From: an uncultured bacterium | Lineage (GTDB): Bacteria; Caldisericota; Caldisericia; JAAYUI01 | DNA: 64,000 bases | Reading direction: 5' to 3' | NCBI GenBank assembly: GCA_965370295.1 | Contig: CBDUSO010000005.1 | Coordinates: 7,580-71,579 of the forward strand | In this document: one piece after another, positions 3,927 to 62,899 of the stretch | Numbering within the stretch: the stretch's first letter is position 1 | Layout of the letters: each line of letters begins with the position of its first letter | Translations under genes and position numbers: made by a program | The notes under the pieces: model-generated | Told to the model about the DNA's origin: nothing | What the model saw: only the letters and a program-made list of their open reading frames with translations | The model's database searches: none

Positions 3927-3994
3927 TGAACTTTCAACTTGACAGTCTTTTATTGATGCATAGAATAACTGAAAGGTAAGGGGGTTTAAATACG

Positions 3995-4510
3995 ATGCTA
4001 GTACCTCTTGATATACAACACAAGACGTTTAAGAGCGGTGTTTCTGGTTACAACAAGCAGGAAGTCCAGGAATTTCTCTCTCAGGTCGAAAAAGATTTTT
4101 CACAGCTTTATCGTGATAACAAAGAGCTTCAGGAAAAAGTCGAGCGATTATCTGAGGAAGTTGACAGATACCGCTCAACGGGACGACAGCTTGAACAAGC
4201 CCTGACCCTTGCTCAGAAAACTGCTGAGGATGTAAAAAATACCGCAAGGCACGAGGCAGAGCTGATAGTCAGTGTTGCAATATCCAAGGCAGAGCAACAG
4301 ACAAATGAAACTCGCCAGTTGATGCGTTCCATTACTGGAGCATATCTTGAATTCAAGAGTGAATTCCGAGCCTACTTAACAACATTTCTCAATCTTCTTG
4401 ATAACATGGATGTCTCACTTGTTGAGAAAACAAAAGAATCAAAAGCCAGATTTGAAAATATTCCTGAAATATCCGCTGAACAGCAATCGGAAGAAATTGG
4501 CGAATCCTAG
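3995..4510 (+). CDS. divIVA: DivIVA domain protein (cell-division/polar scaffold)
   Basis: N-terminus MLVPLDIQHKTFKSGVSGYNKQEVQEFLSQV matches the DivIVA lipid-binding N-domain. Coiled-coil remainder. GGGGG RBS. Confidence 0.8.
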   Translation: MLVPLDIQHKTFKSGVSGYNKQEVQEFLSQVEKDFSQLYRDNKELQEKVERLSEEVDRYRSTGRQLEQALTLAQKTAEDVKNTARHEAELIVSVAISKAEQQTNETRQLMRSITGAYLEFKSEFRAYLTTFLNLLDNMDVSLVEKTKESKARFENIPEISAEQQSEEIGES

Positions 4511-6471: not shown

Positions 6472-6547
6472 GGGGCAGTAGCTCATCTGGCAGAGTGCAT
6501 CCTTCGCAAGGATGAGGTAGGGAGTTCGAGTCTCCTCTGCTCCACCA
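6472..6547 (+). tRNA. tRNA-Ala (anticodon CGC), CCA encoded
   Basis: Cloverleaf readable: acceptor GGGGCAG/CTGCTCC with diagnostic G3:U70 pair; anticodon loop TTCGCAA; T-arm GGTTCGAGTCC-like. Confidence 0.85.
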
Positions 6548-6566: not shown

Positions 6567-7025
6567 TTATTTTTTGTAATTTGCGATAATTACCATTATG
6601 CCAACAAAAACTAGTAGTGCCGGCCAGAAATATCGCCAAATCTTATCAAGATGCAACCAGCCAAATGAAACCGAAAGTGCGATTATGCCTAAGATAACAA
6701 GTATGATTCCGGCAGTATACGACATGTTAGTTCTCATAACTACGGGGTTATTCATCTGGGATTCTGAGTGTAGTTTGTCGTTATCATCGGAATCTGACTC
6801 AAACACATCCCCTGCCTTTTGTTTGCTGGTCGAAGATGTGTTTACAGGTTTTTCCGGGATAATAAAGATCGCAACTATATAGGCGAGTATTCCAACTCCA
6901 CCAAGAAAAACACAGATAACAAGAACAACCCGAACTAGGGTGGGATCAACATTTAGATAGTTGGCAATACCACCGCAAACACCAGAAATAATCCTGTCTG
7001 TTCTCGATTTGTATAGCCTTTTCAA
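6567..7025 (-). CDS. PspC domain-containing membrane protein
   Basis: N-terminal RIISGVCGGIANYLNVDPTLVRVVLVI is the PspC domain signature. Followed by TM segments. Confidence 0.7.
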   Translation of the reverse strand: MKRLYKSRTDRIISGVCGGIANYLNVDPTLVRVVLVICVFLGGVGILAYIVAIFIIPEKPVNTSSTSKQKAGDVFESDSDDNDKLHSESQMNNPVVMRTNMSYTAGIILVILGIIALSVSFGWLHLDKIWRYFWPALLVFVGIMVIIANYKK

Positions 7026-7031
7026 TAGATG

Positions 7032-7592
7032 CTAACTCCTCTTTGTGGCTCGTGTAATCAGGTGAATGAAGAGGTAAATAATGTATGCACCAAAAATCAT
7101 AATGAATGGCCAGAGAAGGATATGGATGAGTGCAGAAGAAACCTCCCAGTTCATTGGGGTAGCACCCTTATCTCTGAAGTACCACGTGGCAACTCCATTG
7201 AAGATTAGAACTTGAATGATTGCAGCAAGATAGAAGAAAAATATCTTTCCAATTGTGACAGAGATTGCAGAAACATTTTGAATCTTTAGTCTGTTGATGG
7301 TTCCGGTTTGATGTTCGTTGGTAAATGAAACTGGACCCAGATTCATCATGTAGAGGGATGAGGCAAAGATTACGAAATAAATCATGTAGTTTGGAAGTGC
7401 AGGTAAATAGCCCGTTGCATCAAAGAAGGAAAACATACCCTCTTTCAGGTAAGTACCTTGGAAGATTGCGAGCGTCACAAGGGCAACTATGATACCCAAA
7501 AAGATAAGGAAGAGAGAACGATTTTTGAACAGAATCTTGAAGTCTTTACCGGTTACAACCAGCCAGCTTGTTAGTGCATTTTTACCCATCAT
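7032..7592 (-). CDS. Polytopic membrane protein, probable permease partner of adjacent ABC ATPase (ABC-2-like)
   Basis: 186 aa, 4-5 predicted TM. 7-nt spacing to PspC gene and 14 nt to upstream ATPase gene, so an operon is likely. Confidence 0.4.
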   Translation of the reverse strand: MMGKNALTSWLVVTGKDFKILFKNRSLFLIFLGIIVALVTLAIFQGTYLKEGMFSFFDATGYLPALPNYMIYFVIFASSLYMMNLGPVSFTNEHQTGTINRLKIQNVSAISVTIGKIFFFYLAAIIQVLIFNGVATWYFRDKGATPMNWEVSSALIHILLWPFIMIFGAYIIYLFIHLITRATKRS

Positions 7593-7605
7593 ATCGCTCC
7601 TATCC

Positions 7606-8559
7606 TCAATCTCTCAACTCGCGACCGGCAAGTTTGTAAAAAACGTTTTCAAGGCTACCTTCGCTCAAACGAATATTTTTTACAGGAATACCAGAATCAC
7701 CGAGAGCCTCAAGGATAATTGAAAGTACCTCGGTTGTGGATTCAAGTTTGATGAGAAGTGTTGAGCCAAATTTTTCAAGACTCTCAATTGGTACAGAGCA
7801 GAAGAGTTGTTTTCTGATTACATCGGTTGGAATATTTTCAAGACCGTCCGCCTCAAGCTCGATCTGGTTTTGTTCACCAAAACAGTTCAGAATATTTTCA
7901 AGATAATCCAGGGCAAGTAATGTTCCCTTGTGCATTATGCCAACTTTTCTGCAGACACTTATGATTTCTCGGGTGTAGGTGGTTGTGATGATGATGGTTT
8001 TGCCTCTGTTTGAGAGAAGATTTAGACCATCTGTGATTATCCTTGCGGATCTGTCGTCGAGTCCTTCAGTTGGTGACTCAAGCATGATGATGCGGGGATC
8101 GGATAACATTGATATTGCAACTGAAAGTCTCTTTGCGTATGAATAGGGCAGTCGTTGGATTGGGATATGGGCTTCTGGTGTGAGCTCGAACAGGTCAAGA
8201 GCCTCCAGCATTATTTCGTTCAAACGACGTTTTTTTACGGTGTTGAAACTTCCAAAAAATTTGAGATTGTCGTGGGCGTTAAAGTCGGGGTAGAGTGCTT
8301 GGGTTTGAGGAACGAGAGAGATGAGTTTTCGAGCCTTGGCACCTGACAAGCCATACATATCAATACCCGAAATAGAAACACTGCCCTCGGATGGCTTAAG
8401 GATGCCGGCAAGAGTGTTTATCAGAGTGGTTTTTCCAGAACCCGCGGGACCAAGAATTCCAAAGCTCTCACCATCTGCGATCTCAAAGTTGAGATTTTCA
8501 AGAACCTTTGTGTTGCCGAAGCTCTTTGTCAGGTTTTTTACTTTAACCAGTGCGTCCAT
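7606..8559 (-). CDS. ABC transporter ATP-binding protein
   Basis: Walker A GPAGSGKTT, ABC signature and Walker B regions present. 317 aa with C-terminal extension. Confidence 0.8.
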   Translation of the reverse strand: MDALVKVKNLTKSFGNTKVLENLNFEIADGESFGILGPAGSGKTTLINTLAGILKPSEGSVSISGIDMYGLSGAKARKLISLVPQTQALYPDFNAHDNLKFFGSFNTVKKRRLNEIMLEALDLFELTPEAHIPIQRLPYSYAKRLSVAISMLSDPRIIMLESPTEGLDDRSARIITDGLNLLSNRGKTIIITTTYTREIISVCRKVGIMHKGTLLALDYLENILNCFGEQNQIELEADGLENIPTDVIRKQLFCSVPIESLEKFGSTLLIKLESTTEVLSIILEALGDSGIPVKNIRLSEGSLENVFYKLAGRELRD

Positions 8560-8570
8560 ATGTTAGCCCC

Positions 8571-9368
8571 CTACATTCCGGTGGGAACGGAGATAAATTG
8601 AGTCTCAATTCCAAGCCTTTTTGTTATTTCATCACCAACTAGTTTTATTCCAACGGTTTCAGTAGCCCAGTGTCCGGCGGATATTACGTTGATTTTGTGT
8701 TCCTTTGCGGTGTGGAAATCAGAGTGTCCAACCTCGCCCGTAACGAGAAGGTCAAGGTTCAGTTTCTTGGCATCTTCAATCGCGAATGCACCGCCACCAG
8801 AAACGATTCCAACGGTTTGAATGTCATCACATCCAAAATCCCAAAGCAAAGGATTGCAACTTGGCAGACTTTCACTGAGTCCAAGTGCAATCTCGTTGAT
8901 ACCCTTTTTATTTTTTATTTGACCGTACAGACCAATTGGTGAGCCGTGATAATCAGAGAACCCATGTCGATTATCGATCCCAACGATGTCTGCAAGACCG
9001 GCATTATTTCCAAATTTCGGGTGTCTGTCGATTGGGATGTGGCATGACCAGAGCGAGATGTTGTTTCTAATCAGGTAAGAAACCCTGCCACCCATCAGCC
9101 CGATAATCCTGTGTTCACCGCCACTCCAGTAGAGACCGTGGTGGGTGATGACCATCTGACAACCATTTTCTTTTGCAAGCTCGAACGTAGAGAGACAGGA
9201 ATCAACGGCAACTCCAACCTTTGTCACTGTTGTACCCGCATCAACTTGAAGACCATTCAAGGATTTATCCATCGGGTCAGCTGAATCTATCAGGAGTTTA
9301 TCCAGAAAGTTTGCAACTTCAATCGCAGTGCATTTGCTCTTAGTTTCTCCAATATCCACAATCATCAC
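8571..9368 (-). CDS. Nif3-family dinuclear metal centre protein (GTP cyclohydrolase 1 type 2 homolog)
   Basis: 265 aa. Conserved HH..YW and GE.GHSD metal-binding segments typical of NIF3/YqfO. Confidence 0.7.
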   Translation of the reverse strand: MMIVDIGETKSKCTAIEVANFLDKLLIDSADPMDKSLNGLQVDAGTTVTKVGVAVDSCLSTFELAKENGCQMVITHHGLYWSGGEHRIIGLMGGRVSYLIRNNISLWSCHIPIDRHPKFGNNAGLADIVGIDNRHGFSDYHGSPIGLYGQIKNKKGINEIALGLSESLPSCNPLLWDFGCDDIQTVGIVSGGGAFAIEDAKKLNLDLLVTGEVGHSDFHTAKEHKINVISAGHWATETVGIKLVGDEITKRLGIETQFISVPTGM

Positions 9369-45095: not shown

Positions 45096-45168
45096 GGGTC
45101 GTTAGCTCAGGTGGTAGAGCATCTGCCTTTTAAGCAGAGGGTCGCTGGTTCGAGTCCAGCACGACTCA
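45096..45168 (+). tRNA. tRNA-Lys (anticodon TTT), no encoded CCA
   Basis: GGGTCGT acceptor, D-arm GCTCAGGTGGTAGAGC, anticodon loop CTTTTAA, T-arm GGTTCGAGTCC. Confidence 0.85.
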
Positions 45169-45189: not shown

Positions 45190-45264
45190 GGCCCCATGGT
45201 CTAACGGTTAGGATGACACTCTTTCAAGGTGTAGGCAGGAGTTCGATTCTCCTTGGGGCTACCA
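45190..45264 (+). tRNA. tRNA-Glu (anticodon TTC), CCA encoded
   Basis: GCCCCAT 5' end typical of tRNA-Glu, D-loop TCTAACGGTTAGG, anticodon loop CTTTCAA, T-arm GGTTCGATTCC, 3' GGGGCTACCA. Confidence 0.8.
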
Positions 45265-58522: not shown

Positions 58523-59314
58523 ATGAAAATTGGCTCCCTGATACTCGTTGTTGATTGTGGAAACACCAACATAAAAGTCGGTGTGTTCGATGGTGATGAG
58601 ATGATGGCACAGTTCCGAATCTCAACCGATCCCGGAAAAACTTCTGATGAATATGTTGTACTTCTTAGAAGCCTCCTCCAGGCAGAAGACATCGACCCAT
58701 CCGAGTTTCAGGGAGCTATCCTTTCGTCGGTTGTGCCCCCCATTCTCCCTCTTCTGGAAAGGGCAATCGAAAAAACCCTTGGACACACTTGCATCACTGT
58801 AAAACCTGGAATAAAAACGGGGATTGCAATTGGTGCAGAAAATCCAAAAGAACTAGGTTCAGACCTCCTCTGTCTGGCTGTTGGTGCCAAGGAAAGACAT
58901 GAATTGCCAGCAATTATTGTTTCGCTGGGGACCGCCACTGCTTTTGTTGCAGTTTCTGACAAGCCTGAAATTTCTGGTGTTGCAATTGCCCCCGGAATTT
59001 TGACTGCTGCAAAGTCTCTTGCAACAGGTGCTGCAAAGCTCCCCCAGATTGAACTAGCAAAACCAAAATCAGCACTCGGAAAAAACACAATTCAATCAAT
59101 GCGAGCTGGAATTGTGTTGGGGTTTGCAGGACTTGTCGACAGAATCTGCATGGAGATGGCAAGAGAGATGAAAAAGCAGCCAATTGTGATTGCAACCGGT
59201 GGACTGCTAAACATCATCTCCCAATCAACCACATCAATCAACCGCTACGACCCATTCCTTTCGCTCTATGGCTTGAAGGCTCTCTACGACAAAAATGTGG
59301 AAAATAGCAAATAA
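58523..59314 (+). CDS. coaX: Type III pantothenate kinase
   Basis: MKIGSLILVVDCGNTNIKVGVF N-terminus (ASKHA fold) and GTATAF..., ATGGL motifs. Confidence 0.85.
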   Translation: MKIGSLILVVDCGNTNIKVGVFDGDEMMAQFRISTDPGKTSDEYVVLLRSLLQAEDIDPSEFQGAILSSVVPPILPLLERAIEKTLGHTCITVKPGIKTGIAIGAENPKELGSDLLCLAVGAKERHELPAIIVSLGTATAFVAVSDKPEISGVAIAPGILTAAKSLATGAAKLPQIELAKPKSALGKNTIQSMRAGIVLGFAGLVDRICMEMAREMKKQPIVIATGGLLNIISQSTTSINRYDPFLSLYGLKALYDKNVENSK

Positions 59315-60272
59315 AACCATCCAGGGAAAAACAATCCTTGCACCACTTGCTGGAGTTGGCGATTCGGTTTTCAGAAAAATAAATCGCAAATATGGTGCAG
59401 GTCTCATCTACACTGAGTTTATCTCGGCTCTTGGACTCCTGCACAAAAATAAAAAAACTTTCAAAATGATAGACTTGGCAGAAGAAGAAAGCCCTGTAAC
59501 GATTCAACTTTTTGGAAGAGAGCCAGAAGACCTTGCTAATGCTTGCAAATATATCGAACAGACTGGTGCTGATTTTGTTGACTTAAACTGTGGATGCCCC
59601 GAACCAAAGATTGTAAAAAGTGGAGCTGGTTCTGCCCTTCTTTCCGACACGGACAGAATTGCGAGAATCGTCTCTGCAATGGTTAAATCGGTAGCAATCC
59701 CGGTCACCGTGAAAATCCGAATGGGTTTAACCCAAGACAAACCAATTTATTTGAAACTTGCAAAGATGGTTGAGGATGCTGGTGCCAGTGCTTTAGCCAT
59801 CAATTGTTGTTTTGCAAGTCAGCAAAAAAAAGGTCCATACCAATGGGAAATTCTTAATGAATTGGTTAATGAACTAAATATTCCAGTCATCGGGAACGGC
59901 GGGATAGATACACCAGAAGATGCTGTAGAAGTTATGAAAACCGGAGTTTCTGCTGTGATGATTGGCAGAGCTTCTCTTGGAAATCCCTGGATTTTCAGAG
60001 AAATAAACTCAGCTTTAGATGGACTCCCAATTCCTGACCGACCAACCATTGATGAGAGATTCTCCGTGATGGCGGATCACCTGAGAGAAGAAGTCAAACT
60101 CCTGGGAGATTATTTCGGAGTCGCCTCAATGCGAAAACACTGGGCATGGTACGTGAAGGGTTTGCCCGGTGCATCCTCATTTCGCGGGCAAGCAGTCCGA
60201 GCTGGTACTATTTCTGAGATGTTGGGGTTGCTTTCTGGATATCGTAGTTATCTAGTTTCAAAAAAATATTGA
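59295..60272 (+). CDS. dusB: tRNA-dihydrouridine synthase
   Basis: LAPLAGVGDSVFR, DLNCGCP (catalytic Cys) and TIM-barrel FMN motifs. 325 aa. Confidence 0.85.
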   Translation: MWKIANKTIQGKTILAPLAGVGDSVFRKINRKYGAGLIYTEFISALGLLHKNKKTFKMIDLAEEESPVTIQLFGREPEDLANACKYIEQTGADFVDLNCGCPEPKIVKSGAGSALLSDTDRIARIVSAMVKSVAIPVTVKIRMGLTQDKPIYLKLAKMVEDAGASALAINCCFASQQKKGPYQWEILNELVNELNIPVIGNGGIDTPEDAVEVMKTGVSAVMIGRASLGNPWIFREINSALDGLPIPDRPTIDERFSVMADHLREEVKLLGDYFGVASMRKHWAWYVKGLPGASSFRGQAVRAGTISEMLGLLSGYRSYLVSKKY

Positions 60273-60336
60273 TTGGATACGTCACTTGAAAAAAATACTT
60301 TCTGATGATACACTCGAAATGTATAAAAGGAGTCAA

Positions 60337-61134
60337 ATGAAACCTTTTCTGAAATGGCCAGGAAACAAATATAGAATTATTGATAGAATTCAAAAAGTGT
60401 TACCACGTGGGGAAAGACTAATAGAGCCATTTGTCGGTTCGGGTGCTGTTTTCTTAAATACAGATTTTGATGAGTATTTGCTTGCAGATTCAAATAATGA
60501 TCTAATAAATCTATTCAACTTAGTGAAACAGGAAGGAATGGAGTTTATTGCGTATACAAAGGAATATTTTAAAGGAAATAACACTGAAAAACGATTCTAT
60601 GAATTAAGGGAAATCTTTAATTCTATAAATGACGTAGTGAAGAAGTCTGCAATATTCCTGTACTTGAACAAGCATGCATACAATGGTCTGTGTAGATACA
60701 ATAAAAGCGGAAAATTTAATGCTCCTTTTGGTAGGTATAAAAGTCCATATTTTCCGTTTCGTGAATTGAAATATTTTTTAGCTAAGTCTTCTCAAGCCAC
60801 TTTTATCGTGAGTGATTTTAGGGAAACAATGTCAAAAGCAGTTGATGGCGATGTACTATATTGTGATCCACCGTATGTCCCCTTGTCCAAAACTTCCAAC
60901 TTTACAACTTATTCTGCTGGTGGATTTGGGCAAAACGAACAATCTGAACTTGCTGGCTTGGCAAAAAAGCTTTCAAAAAGAAATATACCTGTTGTGATTT
61001 CTAATCATGCGACCGAATATACTTGTAATGCGTATAGATCTGCAAAAGTTGATTCATTTGATGTAAGACGTTTTATTAGTTGTAAGGGATCAGAAAGAAA
61101 CAAAGTGAAAGAACTTATAGCAATATTTTCATAG
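60337..61134 (+). CDS. dam: DNA adenine methyltransferase (Dam family, alpha-group N6-MTase)
   Basis: FLKWPGNKYRII, SAM motif EPFVGSGAVFLN, catalytic DPPY (LYCDPPYVP). AAAGGAG RBS. Confidence 0.85.
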   Translation: MKPFLKWPGNKYRIIDRIQKVLPRGERLIEPFVGSGAVFLNTDFDEYLLADSNNDLINLFNLVKQEGMEFIAYTKEYFKGNNTEKRFYELREIFNSINDVVKKSAIFLYLNKHAYNGLCRYNKSGKFNAPFGRYKSPYFPFRELKYFLAKSSQATFIVSDFRETMSKAVDGDVLYCDPPYVPLSKTSNFTTYSAGGFGQNEQSELAGLAKKLSKRNIPVVISNHATEYTCNAYRSAKVDSFDVRRFISCKGSERNKVKELIAIFS

Positions 61135-61144
61135 GAGCTAGTGT

Positions 61145-61636
61145 ATGTCAGAACAGGGAACGAAAGCAAACAAACAAGGAAAAATACTCGAAGGTACAGT
61201 TAAGTCAGTATTTTTAGCTAAAGGATTCTGTATTGTAAAGTACAAAGATTGGTACAAAAAGCCAGAGAAATATGGTGAGGAATTATTGATAGAGGACGCA
61301 CCCTATGAATCAATATATAACCATAAAGGTAAGATGGAATTTCTAATAATTTCAAAAAAGTATGATCAGCGATTTCGGATTGAGTGTAAATGGCAACAAG
61401 TTGGTGGAAGTGTTGATGAAAAATATCCGTATCTCTATCTTAACTGTATTGAGAAATTAGAAGAGAGTTTAGCAATTATCATTATTGATGGGAAGGGTGC
61501 GAGACAGGGAGCTGTTGATTGGCTGAAAAAAGTTTCGGAAAACAAGTTATACACAAATGATAAAAATAATCACAAAGAAGTGAAAGTTATGAGTTTAGCT
61601 GAATTCATGGTATGGGCTAACAAAATTTTTAATTAG
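61145..61636 (+). CDS. Small hypothetical protein with PD-(D/E)XK-like motif; candidate restriction endonuclease partner of the Dam-family MTase
   Basis: 10-nt spacing after MTase gene, GGAG RBS. ...D...(E/D)-x-K-like IED...EFLII...RIECK pattern. No other recognisable family. Confidence 0.35.
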   Translation: MSEQGTKANKQGKILEGTVKSVFLAKGFCIVKYKDWYKKPEKYGEELLIEDAPYESIYNHKGKMEFLIISKKYDQRFRIECKWQQVGGSVDEKYPYLYLNCIEKLEESLAIIIIDGKGARQGAVDWLKKVSENKLYTNDKNNHKEVKVMSLAEFMVWANKIFN

Positions 61637-61746
61637 GATGCTTTAAGTGAATCTTTCAATTTACAACCCCACCAATAATTGGTGAGGTTGTGTTATAAGG
61701 CTATATTATATGATTCCAATTCAAAAATCTGATGAATTATTAACCA

Positions 61747-62505
61747 CTACTTCCCAAGAAATTTCCCAATAACATCCTGGAATGCAATCGGAGTTTCAGT
61801 TTTACCCTGTGGTGGAATGAACCAGCTATGTTCAATAACCACGCCAACCTGGAACGGAAGCTCTTCGCTGATCATGAATGAGAGCATGTCGACAGTGAGT
61901 CCATCAATATCTTTTGGGGTTTCAAATTGCAGGCTGTTGTCCTGAATTGGGGACATGATATCGGTGGTACCAAATATCTTGCCGTCTATGATTAAATCAA
62001 ATGTGATGGGGGTTTCAGGGGTTGCTGAGCTTGTCGCTTCGGTGAGGCGGGAGGCAACGTCTTCAATTCCTCTGACATACAAACCGAGAGTTTGTAGTTC
62101 ATCATCGAAGAAAATCGAACGAACTCCTTCGATGTCCTCTGATGTCAACATGCTGTTCTCACTGTTTCGATCTTTGATGACGATGTGAAGGGGGGTGATG
62201 AGCAGGGAGGCTGTGATGTTTGGGTCGCTTGCCCCTGTGATTTCAACGATGGCCTCACTGCCATCTTTTGAAATCTGGAAGATTCGCATGTCTGCTAGAT
62301 CGTATAGGCGTTTTCTGAAAACATCTTCAAGTTTTACCCAGTCAACGTTTTCAGTTTCGGGTGGTGTGACCAGGGTCATGTGTGTGAATGAGAGCTGGTT
62401 GCCATCTCCACTTTTTCTTTGACAGCTTCCAGAGGAAAATAAAAAGAAAATTCCGATAACGAGGATGAAAATTATACCAAGTGTGATTACTAAATTTTTT
62501 GACAT
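61747..62505 (-). CDS. Hypothetical membrane-anchored/secreted protein
   Basis: Start at MSKNLVITLGIIFILVIGIFFLF (signal anchor). No recognisable domain. Confidence 0.4.
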   Translation of the reverse strand: MSKNLVITLGIIFILVIGIFFLFSSGSCQRKSGDGNQLSFTHMTLVTPPETENVDWVKLEDVFRKRLYDLADMRIFQISKDGSEAIVEITGASDPNITASLLITPLHIVIKDRNSENSMLTSEDIEGVRSIFFDDELQTLGLYVRGIEDVASRLTEATSSATPETPITFDLIIDGKIFGTTDIMSPIQDNSLQFETPKDIDGLTVDMLSFMISEELPFQVGVVIEHSWFIPPQGKTETPIAFQDVIGKFLGK

Positions 62506-62506
62506 G

Positions 62507-62899
62507 TTACTCTTGCTCCAGTTCCAGCAGGACTCCGCCGGTTGATTTTGGGTGGACAAATGCGATTGGTTTTCCGCCTGCACCGATTCTTGGCGTGGTG
62601 TCTATCATGCGAATTTCCTTTTTTTGGAAATTTGCGATTGATGCCTTTACGTCGGGTACTTCGATGCACATGTGGTGAATTCCAGGGCCTTTTTTCTCCA
62701 TGAATTTTGCGATGGGTGAATCGTCGCTGGTTGGTTCGAGAAGTTCTACAACCAGATTGTGATAAACCATCTTTGCAACCTTTACCTTCTGGTCAGCCAC
62801 TTCGCTCTCGTGGTCACAGGTGAAACCCATGAGTTCCCAGTTCTTTTTGCTCTCTTTAATACTTTTAACAGCAATTCCGATGTGTGAAAGTCCATTCAT
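62507..62899 (-). CDS. mce: Methylmalonyl-CoA epimerase (VOC/glyoxalase-fold)
   Basis: 130 aa. LSHIGIAVKSI...HHMCIEV...GVLLEL pattern of VOC family; adjacent to methylmalonyl-CoA mutase. Confidence 0.7.
   Translation of the reverse strand: MNGLSHIGIAVKSIKESKKNWELMGFTCDHESEVADQKVKVAKMVYHNLVVELLEPTSDDSPIAKFMEKKGPGIHHMCIEVPDVKASIANFQKKEIRMIDTTPRIGAGGKPIAFVHPKSTGGVLLELEQE

Follow-up and report, generated by a model that had tools for sequence, protein, structure and literature searches.

The presence of a gene for a small protein directly behind a Dam-family DNA methyltransferase (MTase) gene raises the question of whether the two genes together form a restriction-modification (R-M) system or whether an otherwise orphan Dam has a companion with a different role. 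The pair is found at 60337–61636 of the window, the 64-kb stretch of DNA analyzed here (1–64000), and consists of two co-directional open reading frames (ORFs) on the + strand. The first (60337–61134, +) encodes 265 aa from an ATG and belongs to the Dam family of alpha-class (D12) N6-adenine DNA MTases, with GATC as the predicted target. The second (61145–61636, +) encodes a 163-aa protein of the PD-(D/E)XK type (Pfam PDDEXK_11), a predicted restriction endonuclease. Both genes are confirmed, and the first-pass annotation was right about their placement, the length of the second protein, the 10-nt spacing, and the separate ribosome-binding site (RBS). The MTase gene ends with a TAG stop codon (61132–61134, +), exactly 10 nt separate this stop from the ATG of the nuclease gene at 61145, and the RBS of the nuclease gene, AGGAG (61133–61137, +), overlaps the MTase stop and lies 7 nt ahead of the ATG. 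Neither can be a chance ORF, since both match Pfam or TIGRFAM families (PF02086 and TIGR00571 for the MTase, PF20472 for the nuclease).

The signals around the two genes were read from the sequence. The MTase gene is preceded by an RBS, AAGGAG (60327–60332, +). An alternative, longer form of its ORF would start at TTG 60286; the ATG at 60337 is favored because the alignment with E. coli Dam starts at the second residue encoded from it and because of the position of the AAGGAG. Further upstream, a candidate sigma-70-like promoter, TTGAAA-17-TACACT with a TG extension (60286–60314, +), scored 9/12 in a consensus scan, a pattern match only. Located 3′ of the nuclease gene is a terminator-like hairpin (61664–61690, +) with a 12-position stem containing one mismatch, a 3-nt loop, and a weak T tail; the scan picked up only its inner part, 61670–61684. 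No controller protein is present with the cassette.

The MTase carries the textbook Dam motifs that had been claimed for it: IEPFVGSGAVFLN and CDPPYVPL, with the SAM-binding (FVGSGAV) and catalytic (D/N)PPY motifs both present. In profile searches it matched PF02086 (E 4.2e-61) and scored 281.8 bits against TIGR00571 “dam,” above the cutoff of 114.85, and 340.1 bits against the E. coli Dam equivalog NF008152, below the cutoff of 441. Its alignment with E. coli Dam (2G1P; 287 bits) covers the full length, with an identity of ∼55% judged by eye. In E. coli Dam, R124 contacts guanine, Y119 intercalates, N120 forms hydrogen bonds to bases, and K9 and Y138 recognize the first base pair (PMC4417163). 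In the 2G1P alignment, the GATC-contact residues K9, Y119, N120, L122, R124, P134, and Y138 are all identical in the window MTase, where they are numbered K6, Y115, N116, L118, R120, P130, and Y134. The retention of every residue that reads GATC strongly indicates that the window MTase would be specific for GATC.

The downstream protein, originally described as having no assignable family, does have one. It matches Pfam PF20472 (PDDEXK_11) over the entire profile (positions 1–145 of 145; E 8.9e-49, 165.4 bits against a cutoff of 23.7). The match is thus to a nuclease family and not to a non-nuclease one, as the R-M proposal required. PDDEXK_11 is catalogued in Pfam, and a literature search found no published work on PF20472 or PDDEXK_11, while broader searches found no characterized member. 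No model in NCBIfam, PADLOC, or PHROGs matched the nuclease, and nothing meaningful was returned by a PDB sequence search with either the single protein or the family profile; a phage collection contained no match, and the single annotation obtained from plasmids was generic. A word-index search retrieved 288 relatives, and the 120 listed are nearly all 157–175 aa long with PF20472 as the sole strong domain. An exhaustive HMMER search found 1,015 PDDEXK_11 clusters (50% identity) at E ≤ 1e-3 and 557 at E ≤ 1e-10, and almost all of the best 150 clusters are 150–200 aa. The names given to the 120 listed relatives are generic or plainly wrong, and RefSeq calls one homologue merely a “PD-(D/E)XK nuclease superfamily protein.” Several homologues (P0020, P0072, P0089, and P0117) bear the NCBI name “4-diphosphocytidyl-2C-methyl-D-erythritol kinase,” which looks like a propagated misannotation.

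Conservation within the family points to a putative active site. Among 59 diverse members, E16, E65, E80, Q84, G88, S89, D91, E92, K93, P95, E107, G116, G118, and W126 are near-invariant, and nearly all sequences shown in the diverse family alignment have K or R at position 82. The prominent motifs are GSVDEK (88–93) and DGxG (115–118). The first-pass annotation had read a catalytic pattern as IED...EFLII...RIECK; the second and third elements of this pattern contain the near-invariant E65 and E80-x-K82, but IED (49–51) is not conserved, and the conserved upstream acidic residues of the family are instead E16 and E46. We consider E16, E65, E80, and K82 to be the candidate catalytic residues. 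An AlphaFold2 model of the nuclease (pLDDT 88.9, pTM 0.84) has the alpha-beta-beta-beta-alpha-beta core of the PD-(D/E)XK type, formed by helices at 2–25 and 94–103 and strands at 46–55, 61–70, 75–83, and 109–115. In the model E16 is on helix 1, E65 on β2, and E80-x-K82 on β3. Foldseek against the PDB and BFVD found no close solved structure; the matches are weak (TM about 0.4–0.5) and mostly to PD-(D/E)XK nucleases, with Can2, Bax1, AF1548, PspGI, EcoO109I, and MunI at the top. Two near-invariant positions are altered in the window nuclease, T64 to M and P106 to E, as might be expected if the locus were a decayed remnant in which a functional Dam stands beside an inactive nuclease gene. Such decay is very unlikely, given that the ORF is not truncated, its RBS is intact, and all invariant residues of the close subfamily are retained, as are E16, E65, E80, and K82.

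The size of the protein, which had been said to put it among the smaller type II restriction endonucleases, is not exceptional. PvuII, at the small end of the range, is 18.3 kDa (PMC4081073), and the window nuclease is about 19 kDa. The two are alike in being very small (18–19 kDa) PD-(D/E)XK enzymes, and the window nuclease would be expected to act on a palindrome as a homodimer. They differ in target and in MTase class and have no detectable sequence similarity or close structural similarity. The PvuII system has a C protein, as indicated by the reference list of PMC4081073.

A more informative comparison is with DpnII. The window nuclease itself did not match the Pfam DpnII profile (PF04556) at E ≤ 1. 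Among 30 nuclease homologues, 11 passed the DpnII gathering score, with 24.5–26.8 bits against a cutoff of 23 and a best E of 4e-6, and these matches always fell at profile positions ∼142–261 of 278, that is, in the C-terminal half. Genuine DpnII-family proteins were retrieved with a probe sequence that proved 99%–100% identical to database entries named DpnII. When the 59 diverse PDDEXK_11 members were aligned with 15 DpnII-family proteins by hhalign, the probability was 75.6% (E 2.4e-5, 110 columns); a narrower alignment gave 7.8%. The register is chemically sensible: E16, E65, E80, K82, and GS 88–89 of the nuclease correspond to E152, D201, E214, N216, and GS 222–223 of DpnII, and DGxG corresponds to DGQGW. 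The alignment spans DpnII residues 141–258 and brings the E, D/E, E, GS, and DGxGW motifs of the two into register. The two also differ in that DpnII is ∼288 aa long, as opposed to 163 aa, its entire N-terminal half is missing from the window nuclease, and it has N216 where the window nuclease has K82. We describe the protein as a probable distant relative of DpnII's catalytic half, without the N-terminal ∼140 residues and outside PF04556 in the strict sense; judged by these alignments, the link would be a remote one.

A scan with one genome per species found the nuclease gene in 336 species, and the best 80 loci, whose nucleases form the subfamily with 50% or more identity to that of the window, were kept. 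These 80 loci are spread over Chloroflexota, Bacteroidota, Spirochaetota, Bacillota, Planctomycetota (Brocadia), Campylobacterota, Cyanobacteria, Patescibacteria, Nitrospirota, and the archaeon Methanocella. An adenine MTase gene was observed within 1.2 kb of the nuclease gene in 79 of them; the remaining locus is at a contig end and is uninformative. A D12 MTase is directly upstream on the same strand in 65/80 loci, ∼1.1 kb upstream with a 236-aa ORF of unknown function between in 2/80, and convergent downstream in 1/80. In a further 11/80, an MTase-like ORF of ∼300 aa, assigned to the beta class, is directly upstream; 9 of the 11 were confirmed as PF01555 (E 1e-55 to 1e-63) and the other two were judged from sequence only. 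The intervening 236-aa ORF, which has no Pfam match, occurs in two Bacteroidota loci (L069, 2377–3087; L078, 1603–2313), in the order Dam-like MTase, ORF, nuclease.

The MTases differ in kind from locus to locus. The D12 partners comprise an E. coli-Dam-like group, 48%–63% identical to the window MTase, and groups nearest DpnM, and the seven beta-class MTases that were compared share 47%–56% identity with the DpnA encoded in a genuine dpnM-dpnA-dpnB cassette. By these relationships, the partners would fall into three lineages, E. coli-Dam-like, DpnM-like, and DpnA-like, all of them predicted GATC MTases. Linkage in 79 of the best 80 loci, across unrelated MTase classes and phyla, is hard to explain other than by functional coupling, and an unchanging nuclease whose MTase partner varies, always within GATC-modifying lineages, is what marks an R-M system. 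This pattern also argues that the target of the nuclease is GATC. Analogous to the DpnII/MboI systems (dpnM-dpnA-dpnB; PF04556), the MTase genes stand ahead of the restriction gene on one strand, the partner MTases of PDDEXK_11 are of the Dam/DpnM (D12) and DpnA (PF01555) types, and the predicted target of the window nuclease is unmethylated GATC; the window cassette differs from those systems in having one MTase only.

The same evidence bears on whether the two genes might be a genuine R-M pair in which the nuclease has a target other than plain GATC, such as the longer, Dam-sensitive TGATCA, or cuts by nicking or asymmetrically. What assigns GATC to the nuclease is the nature of its partner MTases together with the remote relationship to DpnII, and these are its only pointers; the enzyme also lacks the N-terminal half of DpnII, which leaves some room for a different specificity. 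However, all three cellular partner lineages (Dam, DpnM, and DpnA) are 4-bp GATC MTases, the partners in an R-M system are normally of one shared specificity, and within the window TGATCA does not stand out as rare when set against the other hexamers containing GATC. We therefore regard a different target as unlikely.

The surroundings of the pair were compared with those in relatives. In a blastn comparison with the relative locus L122, whose DusB is 96% identical, the sequences are colinear at 88%–93% identity on both sides, to 60268 on the left and from 61741 on the right. The segment between, 60269–61740, is a variable slot of 1,472 bp that is exactly filled by the cassette. Its GC content is 33%, compared with 42% for the rest of the window, and is 32%–36% across both genes against 41%–48% in the flanks. 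The left flank is dusB, encoding a tRNA-dihydrouridine synthase (59295–60272, +), which is conserved in relatives; the right flank is a conserved hypothetical gene (61747–62583, −), a 278-aa ORF from a GTG start for which 252 aa are called in relatives, beyond which are glyoxalase/epimerase and methylmalonyl-CoA mutase genes. An Rfam search of the window gave three tRNA genes and nothing else, at 6472–6544, 45096–45168, and 45190–45261. Among named taxa, Caldisericales (56% identity) and Cryosericum (44%) have the DusB closest to that of the window, and this comparison puts the organism near Caldisericales/Caldisericota. These boundaries and the base composition suggest that the cassette was acquired by horizontal transfer.

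The same slot is occupied by other genes in the relatives. In L122 (6975–8762) it holds a gene for a 528-aa OLD-family ATPase-TOPRIM (AAA/TOPRIM) nuclease, and in L123 (about 6991–8964; DusB 76% identical) one for a 607-aa GmrSD type IV restriction enzyme. The position between dusB and the next conserved gene is thus a hot spot for defense genes, which provides independent support for a defense role of the cassette.

The location also helps to evaluate the possibility that the nuclease is a MutH-like, methyl-directed nickase that would serve mismatch repair by cutting hemimethylated GATC on its unmethylated strand, with the MTase as a housekeeping Dam. The window MTase, alignable over its full length to Dam and paired with a small PD-(D/E)XK nuclease, does recall E. 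coli Dam and MutH, and MutH is related to the restriction enzyme Sau3AI. On the other hand, the MTase scores under the Dam equivalog cutoff, and searches of Pfam, NCBIfam, and PDB sequences gave no MutH/Sau3AI family match for the nuclease. As a mobile cassette of low GC content lying in a defense slot, with OLD or GmrSD genes in its place in close relatives, the pair is not a stable housekeeping locus. Its distribution across phyla is patchy, some of the partner MTases are of the DpnA type, and no mutS or mutL was called in the flanks of the two close relatives. A role in mismatch repair is thus highly improbable.

Restriction by the cassette might be expected to leave a mark on the abundance of its target. 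Indeed, GATC is depleted in the 64-kb window (observed/expected [O/E] 0.47, z −13.5) and is the third lowest of the 256 tetramers, after GCGC and GGCC. Pooled over 55 carrier loci, its O/E is 0.69, the second lowest after CTAG. The depletion is equally strong in two relatives that have no cassette at the slot (O/E 0.38 and 0.41) and hence cannot be credited to the cassette; as specific evidence of restriction by it, this observation was rejected. The low frequency of GATC reflects the long-term history of the lineage and not the recently arrived cassette, and it is consistent with an R-M system without singling one out. GCGC (O/E 0.15) and GGCC (O/E 0.33) are rarer than GATC (0.47) in the whole window, and L122 has no GCGC and one GGCC in 13 kb, which hints that HhaI-like and HaeIII-like restriction acts, or once acted, in the lineage.

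Not all relatives of the nuclease are accompanied by an MTase. Viral contigs contain 39 more divergent relatives, of which 12 have a D12 MTase directly upstream. Among the other viral relatives tested, an MT-A70 MTase adjoins the nuclease gene in two and a phage Dam of family PF05869 in another two; these loci (L087, 2965–4011; L109, 4483–5070; L115, 2602–3993; L118, 4273–5280) suggest two further apparent partner MTase families for the nuclease fold. For about 20 viral-contig relatives no MTase neighbor was detected by tblastn or Pfam. Several of the MTase-less copies are in podovirus-like contigs, where the nuclease gene overlaps the start of the ORF for the polymerase domain of polA and lies downstream of a separate ORF for UDG/3′-5′-exo. 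Divergent PDDEXK_11 genes of podovirus-like loci were seen in L094, L095 (for example, at 3965–4465), L100, L103–L106, and L111–L113. Phages whose PolA is 65%–67% identical have the gap between the exo and polymerase ORFs without the nuclease, and in further phages other genes, such as ThyX, fill it. A strict homing endonuclease was considered for the phage copies and was not upheld, for these same reasons.

The viral copies without an MTase indicate that the fold is not confined to R-M use, and they raise the possibility that the window nuclease, too, is a mobile or replication-associated endonuclease, not a restriction enzyme, that travels with an otherwise orphan Dam. Such an element is favored by the copies that lie between the exo and polymerase ORFs of a split polA and by their absence from phages with 65%–67% identical PolA. 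Nevertheless, relatives sharing 50% or more identity with the window nuclease are consistently MTase-linked, the linkage extends over unrelated MTase classes and phyla, and the slot in which the cassette is found is taken by defense genes in relatives. We consider an endonuclease of this kind quite unlikely at the present locus.

Taken together, the two genes most probably constitute a compact, horizontally acquired type IIP R-M operon, consisting of a GATC MTase and a PD-(D/E)XK restriction endonuclease of ∼19 kDa; we place the probability of this reading at roughly 0.72. The original proposal of a compact type II system is thereby strengthened, through the PD-(D/E)XK family and core of the small protein, its likely remote homology to DpnII, the MTase linkage in 79 of the 80 loci, and the low-GC insertion in a defense slot. 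In such an operon, the MTase would methylate N6 of the adenine in GATC and so protect the host chromosome. The endonuclease, presumably a homodimer, would bind Mg2+ through E65, E80, and K82, helped by E16, and would cut unmethylated GATC in incoming DNA, probably as DpnII and MboI do. The nuclease activity, its specificity for GATC, the dimerization, and the position of the cut are what we infer from the family and its partners. With the MTase gene placed first under a single putative promoter, protection could be in place ahead of restriction on entry of the cassette into a new cell.

The cassette is most likely an unusually small but otherwise ordinary R-M system in a defense-gene hot spot. 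This kind of system is well known, and the current understanding is not overturned. For the organism, the locus provides a clean natural example of a defense hot spot in a Caldisericota-like lineage, with R-M, OLD, and GmrSD cassettes interchanging between the same flanks. If the assignment is confirmed, GATC restriction would become a function for a Pfam family labeled just as a nuclease domain, about 160 residues would be enough for a DpnII-like enzyme, and a very small GATC-specific nuclease might become available for engineering. A broader and more speculative reading, which we advance tentatively and think rather doubtful as a whole, is that PDDEXK_11, with its more than 1,000 clusters at 50% identity, is a large family of minimal ∼19-kDa GATC restriction enzymes that amount to a free-standing DpnII core. 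Its partners would have been drawn from three or more unrelated adenine-MTase lineages, perhaps five, and the MTase-less copies beside polA in marine podovirus-like phages would be mobile or directed against the host. Were this true, one small fold would be switching between R-M and selfish or phage lifestyles.
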